A program made the translations under genes and the position numbers. The notes under the pieces were generated by a model, which ran no database searches, had not been told where the DNA came from, and was given only the letters and a program-made list of their open reading frames with translations. From sequence record OR352942.1: a DNA stretch of 64,000 nt; one strand, 5' to 3'. Origin of the DNA: Escherichia phage AV112. Shown in pieces: positions 42,258-42,713 of the stretch (its first letter is position 1; every line of letters starts with the position of its first letter).

Positions 42258-42713
42258 TTATTTTAGATCTTCGGCCCAATCTAGTTTTAAGGGTTCTTTG
42301 TATTCACGGTCGAGAATAACCGGAATAGCTACATCACCACTGAATGATAGTTGGCCAACGTTATATGATAACGTTATATGTGGAGTGTAGTCGTCGAAAT
42401 CATGAGTAGCACCTAAAGCTCGTGCATACTGATGACGACATCTAAGATATTCGGAATCAAGAACTAAAACCAGTACAGCGCCGTCGTCAGTTTTCCATAC
42501 CTCAAGGTGTCCTGATTCGGCAACAGAATAACTACCACTAGATGTAGTATATGGTATGTTTACACGTGAATAACAAATTGTTGAATGAAGCTTTTCACGT
42601 GGTACTGGATTAGGAATTCTTAATTTACGCTGGAGGTCTTCCAGCGCATCAAGTGTTAATTCCGAAAATTTAGCTGCGACGTAGAGGCCTTGTGAAAAGT
42701 CCTCAAATTTCAT
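42258..42713 (-). CDS. 57B: 2H phosphoesterase, gp57B/Acb1-like anti-CBASS nuclease
   Basis: 151 aa; two H-x-[ST]-x motifs (HSTICY and HITLSY) typical of 2H phosphoesterases; same position and length class as T4 57B. Confidence 0.75.

Follow-up and report, generated by a model that had tools for sequence, protein, structure and literature searches.

A predicted anti-CBASS nuclease, Acb1, at the gene 57B position of a Mosigvirus genome

The acb1 locus

The window, meaning the whole 64-kb stretch of phage DNA that was analysed, corresponds to positions 103943–167942 of the record of AV113 (OR352943.1), a Mosigvirus isolated on an ESBL strain of E. coli. Over 12.3 kb, the two sequences agree base for base. 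A first-pass annotation had singled out an open reading frame (ORF) of 151 aa at 42258–42713 with the motifs HSTICY and HITLSY. The ORF list confirms this reading frame and places it on the minus strand, with HSTICY starting at H43 of the product and HITLSY at H112. The gene is referred to here as acb1 (gene 57B). The features of the gene and its immediate surroundings are as follows.

42258..42713, minus strand: acb1 (gene 57B) coding sequence, ATG start, 151 aa, stop codon included (ORF list)
42579..42587, minus strand: catalytic motif 1, H43-S44-T45 (T4 H44/T46), codons CAT TCA ACA
42372..42380, minus strand: catalytic motif 2, H112-I113-T114 (T4 H113/T115), codons CAT ATA ACG
42258..42284, minus strand: C-terminal lid LDWAEDLK, residues 144–151 (T4 145–152), plus the stop codon; includes the base-stacking Trp146 (T4 W147)
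42713..42943, minus strand: gene 57A (tail-fibre assembly chaperone), directly upstream of acb1; Pfam GP57, E=9.8e-23
41918–42181, minus strand: internal-protein-like ORF, 87 aa, just downstream of acb1, with a capsid-targeting-like leader
41582–41854, minus strand: internal-protein-like ORF, 90 aa, downstream of acb1, with a capsid-targeting-like leader
38892–39356: third ORF with a capsid-targeting-like leader

The genes are arranged in the order 3, 1 (dNMP kinase), 57A, 57B, internal-protein genes, trna.4/.3/.2 and tRNA cluster, an order shared with T4 and RB69. The assignment of the ORF to the T4 57B position is therefore borne out: acb1 directly follows gene 1 and 57A and precedes the internal-protein genes. 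Genes 57A, 1 and 3 flank the RB69 copy in the same way, and 57A and 57B are also adjacent in T4, in RB69 and in more distant relatives, namely Acinetobacter, Aeromonas, Vibrio, Klebsiella and Krischvirus phages. Gene 57A ends in a stop codon that shares 1 nt with the acb1 start (TAATG), whereas the T4 genes overlap by 4 nt. Because of this overlap, the two genes are probably co-transcribed and translationally coupled. A sigma-70 promoter scan around acb1 returned 13 sites, against 11.7 ± 3.7 in shuffled sequences; this count shows no enrichment and so carries no evidence on transcription starts.

The three leader-bearing ORFs begin with MKT(Y/F)KEF or MKSYAEF and in this resemble IPI of T4 and the internal head proteins of RB69. 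The 'internal head protein' family of PHROGs is matched by one of the three. In terms of sequence, this agrees with the earlier proposal that genes for capsid-targeted proteins adjoin acb1. The RB69 genes at the corresponding place are RB69p155 and RB69p156. The window's internal-protein-like genes at 41582–42181 (minus strand) differ from these and have only the N-terminal leader in common with them, while acb1 is 100% identical. For many relatives, the match to the window sequence starts only at about 41850. The internal-protein locus thus looks like a highly variable one that abuts the conserved acb1.

Family membership

Gene 57B of T4 encodes the anti-CBASS nuclease Acb1 (Hobbs et al. 2022, PMC9117128). 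The T4 protein was found through activity-guided fractionation as a cGAMP-degrading enzyme. Deletion of acb1 abolishes the cGAMP-degrading activity of T4 lysates, and the mutant phage is sensitized to CBASS operons of Yersinia aleksiciae and E. coli (PMC9117128). The first-pass annotation had described T4 57B as an enzyme that degrades the cyclic signals of CBASS, which matches this published role.

The annotation had further classed the window's ORF as a 2H phosphoesterase of the 57B/Acb1 type, and profile, structure and pairwise comparisons all agree. The product matches Pfam PF23474, 'Anti-CBASS protein Acb1', with 198.1 bits (E=7.4e-59; the curated cut-off is 27 bits). The match is full-length: residues 8–149 align to profile positions 1–144 of 144. 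Acb1 of Erwinia phage FBB1 (PDB 7T26/7T27) is matched over 140 residues at E=3.5e-59, and the crystallized chain is about 64% identical to the product in the homologue alignment. T4 gp57B/Acb1 (NP_049750.1) shares 130 of the 151 residues (86%), the T4 protein having one extra N-terminal Met and being otherwise equal in length. The protein is 100% identical over its 151 residues to RB69 gp57B (NP_861847.1) and to copies in several other phages, and the protein of Mosigvirus phage AlbertHofmann (Bas47) is 99.3% identical. More distant are the Acb1 chains 9Q2G and 9Q2Y (165 aa); 9Q2G is matched at E=0.0023, with both His motifs aligned. A search of NCBIfam found no model for the protein. Of 50 697 phage records searched by tblastn, 1470 contain a homologue, and in 1462 of these at least 80% of the query is covered.

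The paired H-x-[TS] motifs were also considered as stand-alone evidence, and in that role they are weak and were rejected. Two or more such motifs occur in 13% of shuffles of the acb1 protein itself and in 3.6% of 151-aa windows taken from other long ORFs of the 64-kb window. The Acb1 call lies far beyond chance because of the full-length profile match (Pfam 198 bits; PDB 7T26), and not because of the motif pair. Assignment of the compact 2H phosphoesterase fold likewise follows from the homology to 7T26 described above. A single-sequence AlphaFold2 model of the product reached a pLDDT of only 40.9, which made it unusable and is why the fold rests on identity to a solved structure.

Active site, lid and the 'RNA ligase' label

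The FBB1 enzyme, solved in the apo form (7T26) and with 3'3'-cGAMP (7T27), has a 2H phosphoesterase fold with a U-shaped pocket and a C-terminal lid formed by residues 145–152 (PMC9117128). Nine functional residues have been named: the tetrad H44/T46/H113/T115, the stacking residues Y12, W74, F107 and W147, and the adenine-reading E141 (PMC9117128). In T4, H44A is catalytically inactive, as is the H44A/H113A double mutant (PMC9117128). All nine residues named by Hobbs et al. (2022) are conserved in the acb1 product, each at the T4 position minus one. The tetrad is present as H43, T45, H112 and T114, and the ligand-contact residues as Y11, W73, F106, W146 and E140. Alignment with T4 Acb1, the check that the first-pass annotation had proposed, therefore finds both catalytic histidines in place, together with both threonines. 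The 21 differences from T4 Acb1 are mostly conservative substitutions, and none falls on the nine named residues. The lid, LDWAEDLK, is identical to the T4 lid LDWADDLK at seven of eight positions, the sole change being D149E. This lid is predicted to close over the ligand.

Conservation of the tetrad extends well beyond these close relatives. Both His, both Thr and Tyr11 are invariant in an alignment of nine homologues, the least similar of which is 26% identical; the alignment covers Acinetobacter, Aeromonas, Vibrio, Klebsiella and Krischvirus phages (Straboviridae) and FBB1. The FBB1 chain has Phe and Tyr in place of Trp73 and Phe106, aromatic for aromatic, with its HxT/HxT tetrad aligned. 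Together with the 1470 homologue records, the invariant tetrad suggests that the gene is kept under selection.

Public names for the family disagree, and include 'RNA ligase', 'hypothetical protein', 'cyclic phosphodiesterase' and 'anti-CBASS protein Acb1'. The gene is a 'hypothetical protein' in the AV113 record, and both RefSeq and PHROGs (PHROG 755) call the family 'RNA ligase'. Taken at face value, that last name would describe a generic LigT-like 2',3'-cyclic phosphodiesterase or 2'-5' 'RNA ligase' whose substrates would be RNA ends, for instance during tRNA repair, instead of immune signals. A tRNA cluster about 1.6 kb from acb1 would suit such a function, as would a partial match of residues 76–131 to Pfam 2_5_RNA_ligase2 (PF13563). 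This match is sub-threshold, however (E=0.026; 15 bits versus a cut-off of 27). The label reflects resemblance at the level of the 2H superfamily only, the family threshold being missed, and PF02834 gives no match to the product even at E<=10. The T4 orthologue, moreover, is a cGAMP-degrading enzyme whose deletion removes the activity and sensitizes the phage to CBASS (PMC9117128), and the residues that grip the bases are conserved in the acb1 product along with the lid. A role confined to RNA ends is accordingly most improbable. Membership in the LigT/2'-5' RNA ligase family is rejected on the PF13563 score (15 bits versus 27) and on the T4 biochemistry (PMC9117128), which points elsewhere.

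By its sequence the gene is already known: it encodes the same protein as RB69 gp57B and is a member of a characterized, Pfam-named family. Its value is mainly one of annotation, the correct label being anti-CBASS nuclease Acb1.

Other counter-defence candidates in the window

The first-pass annotation had described several layers of likely counter-defence, citing the capsid-targeted proteins together with macrodomain and nucleotidyltransferase candidates. Both of the latter are present, as is a further ORF that it had passed over.

27360–27626, minus strand: Acb2/Tad1 hairpin-domain ORF (Vs.4/Acb2-type), 88 aa, in the vs gene cluster; Pfam PF24729, E=8.2e-18
25269–25736, minus strand: Macro domain ORF, 155 aa; PF01661, E=2.9e-6, 27.6 bits versus a cut-off of 22
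20715–21701, minus strand: RlaP Pol-beta nucleotidyltransferase ORF, 328 aa; PF10127, E=8.4e-13

The Macro domain ORF, for which NCBIfam gives a faint DarG-like match (30 bits versus a cut-off of 250), may encode an enzyme that removes ADP-ribose. The nucleotidyltransferase candidate of the first-pass annotation is the 328-aa ORF; the family that it matches, RlaP (PF10127), is described as 'RNA repair pathway DNA polymerase beta family'. The claim of several layers thus holds as far as the sequence features go (leaders, Macro, RlaP), with Macro and RlaP standing as candidates for a counter-defence role.

The ORF at 27360–27626, with regB (26624–27082) nearby, probably encodes an Acb2-type cyclic-nucleotide sponge like that of T4 acb2. 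It would be a second anti-CBASS device alongside acb1 in the window, as in T4, which carries both acb1 and acb2 (PMC12657218). For layered counter-defence this gene is a stronger point than the Macro and RlaP features that had been cited.

Ten consecutive or nearby ORFs are labelled 'thioredoxin' in the AV113 GenBank record (window 13980–21701; record 117922–125643). They include a DUF7235 protein, an AAA-like protein and the RlaP nucleotidyltransferase, and the labels appear to be an annotation carry-over error.

Proposed mechanism

The product of acb1 is very probably active as Acb1 (gp57B), a metal-independent 2H phosphodiesterase consisting of one small domain, which would linearize adenosine-containing cyclic di- and trinucleotides and blunt CBASS. 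The activity, substrate range and anti-CBASS phenotype proposed for this allele are those expected from homology to the 86%-identical T4 enzyme. The predicted course of action, which has been established for the T4 and FBB1 enzymes, is as follows. (i) The U-shaped pocket and the C-terminal lid would clamp a cyclic di- or trinucleotide. (ii) Aromatic residues would stack on the bases, and the glutamate would read the N6 of adenine. (iii) The HxT/HxT tetrad would provide metal-independent acid–base catalysis, in which the 2'-OH attacks the 3'-5' bond located 3' of an adenosine. (iv) A 2',3'-cyclic phosphate intermediate would be formed and resolved to a linear product with a 3'-phosphate. (v) During infection, 3'3'-cGAMP, cUA, cAAA and similar signals would be removed. 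(vi) With the signal lost, CBASS effectors would stay inactive and the phage would escape abortive infection.

The same chemistry might be directed mainly at other systems. Acb1 degrades cA3, and type II Panoptes, which uses cA3 as its guard signal, senses Acb1 activity (PMC13577387, which also describes what Acb1 activity leads to in vivo for T-even phages). The chief target could then be cA3 or other adenosine-containing signals of non-CBASS systems, such as type III CRISPR or other cyclase-based defences, with CBASS secondary. The Acb2-type sponge encoded in the same window could leave Acb1 partly redundant against cGAMP-based CBASS, in keeping with such a shift. T4 lacking acb1 is nonetheless specifically sensitized to CBASS operons, those of Y. 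aleksiciae and E. coli (PMC9117128), and a priority of this kind seems very doubtful; it would alter the emphasis and leave the mechanism unchanged.

Neither the literature nor its supplements yielded an assay of the RB69/Mosigvirus Acb1 allele, and no in vivo CBASS-protection data were found there for RB69-type phages. The Panoptes phage experiments consulted used T4 or the Tevenvirinae Bas35–37 (PMC13577387, PMC12657218). Bas47 (AlbertHofmann), the only BASEL phage that could be tied to a near-identical allele, is not among the phages of those experiments.

There is a slight chance that the Mosigvirus allele has a shifted substrate range, taking in 2',3'-linked or non-adenosine cyclic nucleotides, for example, or reduced activity on Panoptes guard molecules. 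The idea arises because of the 21 substitutions relative to T4, the arabinosyl-hydroxymethylcytosine that the DNA of this phage carries and the presence of the Acb2-type sponge. If it were true, the phage could evade both CBASS and guard systems. From the combination of Acb1 and an Acb2-type sponge, resistance to many CBASS systems is predicted, which is relevant for phage-therapy candidates such as this phage of ESBL E. coli. The same pair may expose the phage to Panoptes-type guard systems, which sense cyclic-nucleotide loss.

Structures and tRNA genes downstream of acb1

A stem-loop with a 12-bp stem lies at 42210–42236 (minus strand), right behind the acb1 stop codon and ahead of the next internal-protein-like gene. 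Its minimum free energy is −19 kcal/mol (z=−3.99), none of 200 shuffles is equally stable, and no U-tract accompanies it. RB69 carries the identical stem-loop, and the hairpin that T4 has at this site is built on another stem sequence (z=−3.85). A match to a T4-early-like promoter (TTTACA-17-TACTAT, with an upstream TG) overlaps the structure. The stem-loop may mark the 3' end of a transcript, contribute to transcript stability or occlude the promoter.

Ten tRNA genes are found at 39745–40569 (Arg, Asn, Tyr, Met, Thr, Ser, Pro, Gly, Leu and Gln), compared with two in the stretch of RB69 that was examined and eight in T4. Mosigvirus genomes that are nearly identical in other respects differ in their set of tRNA genes.
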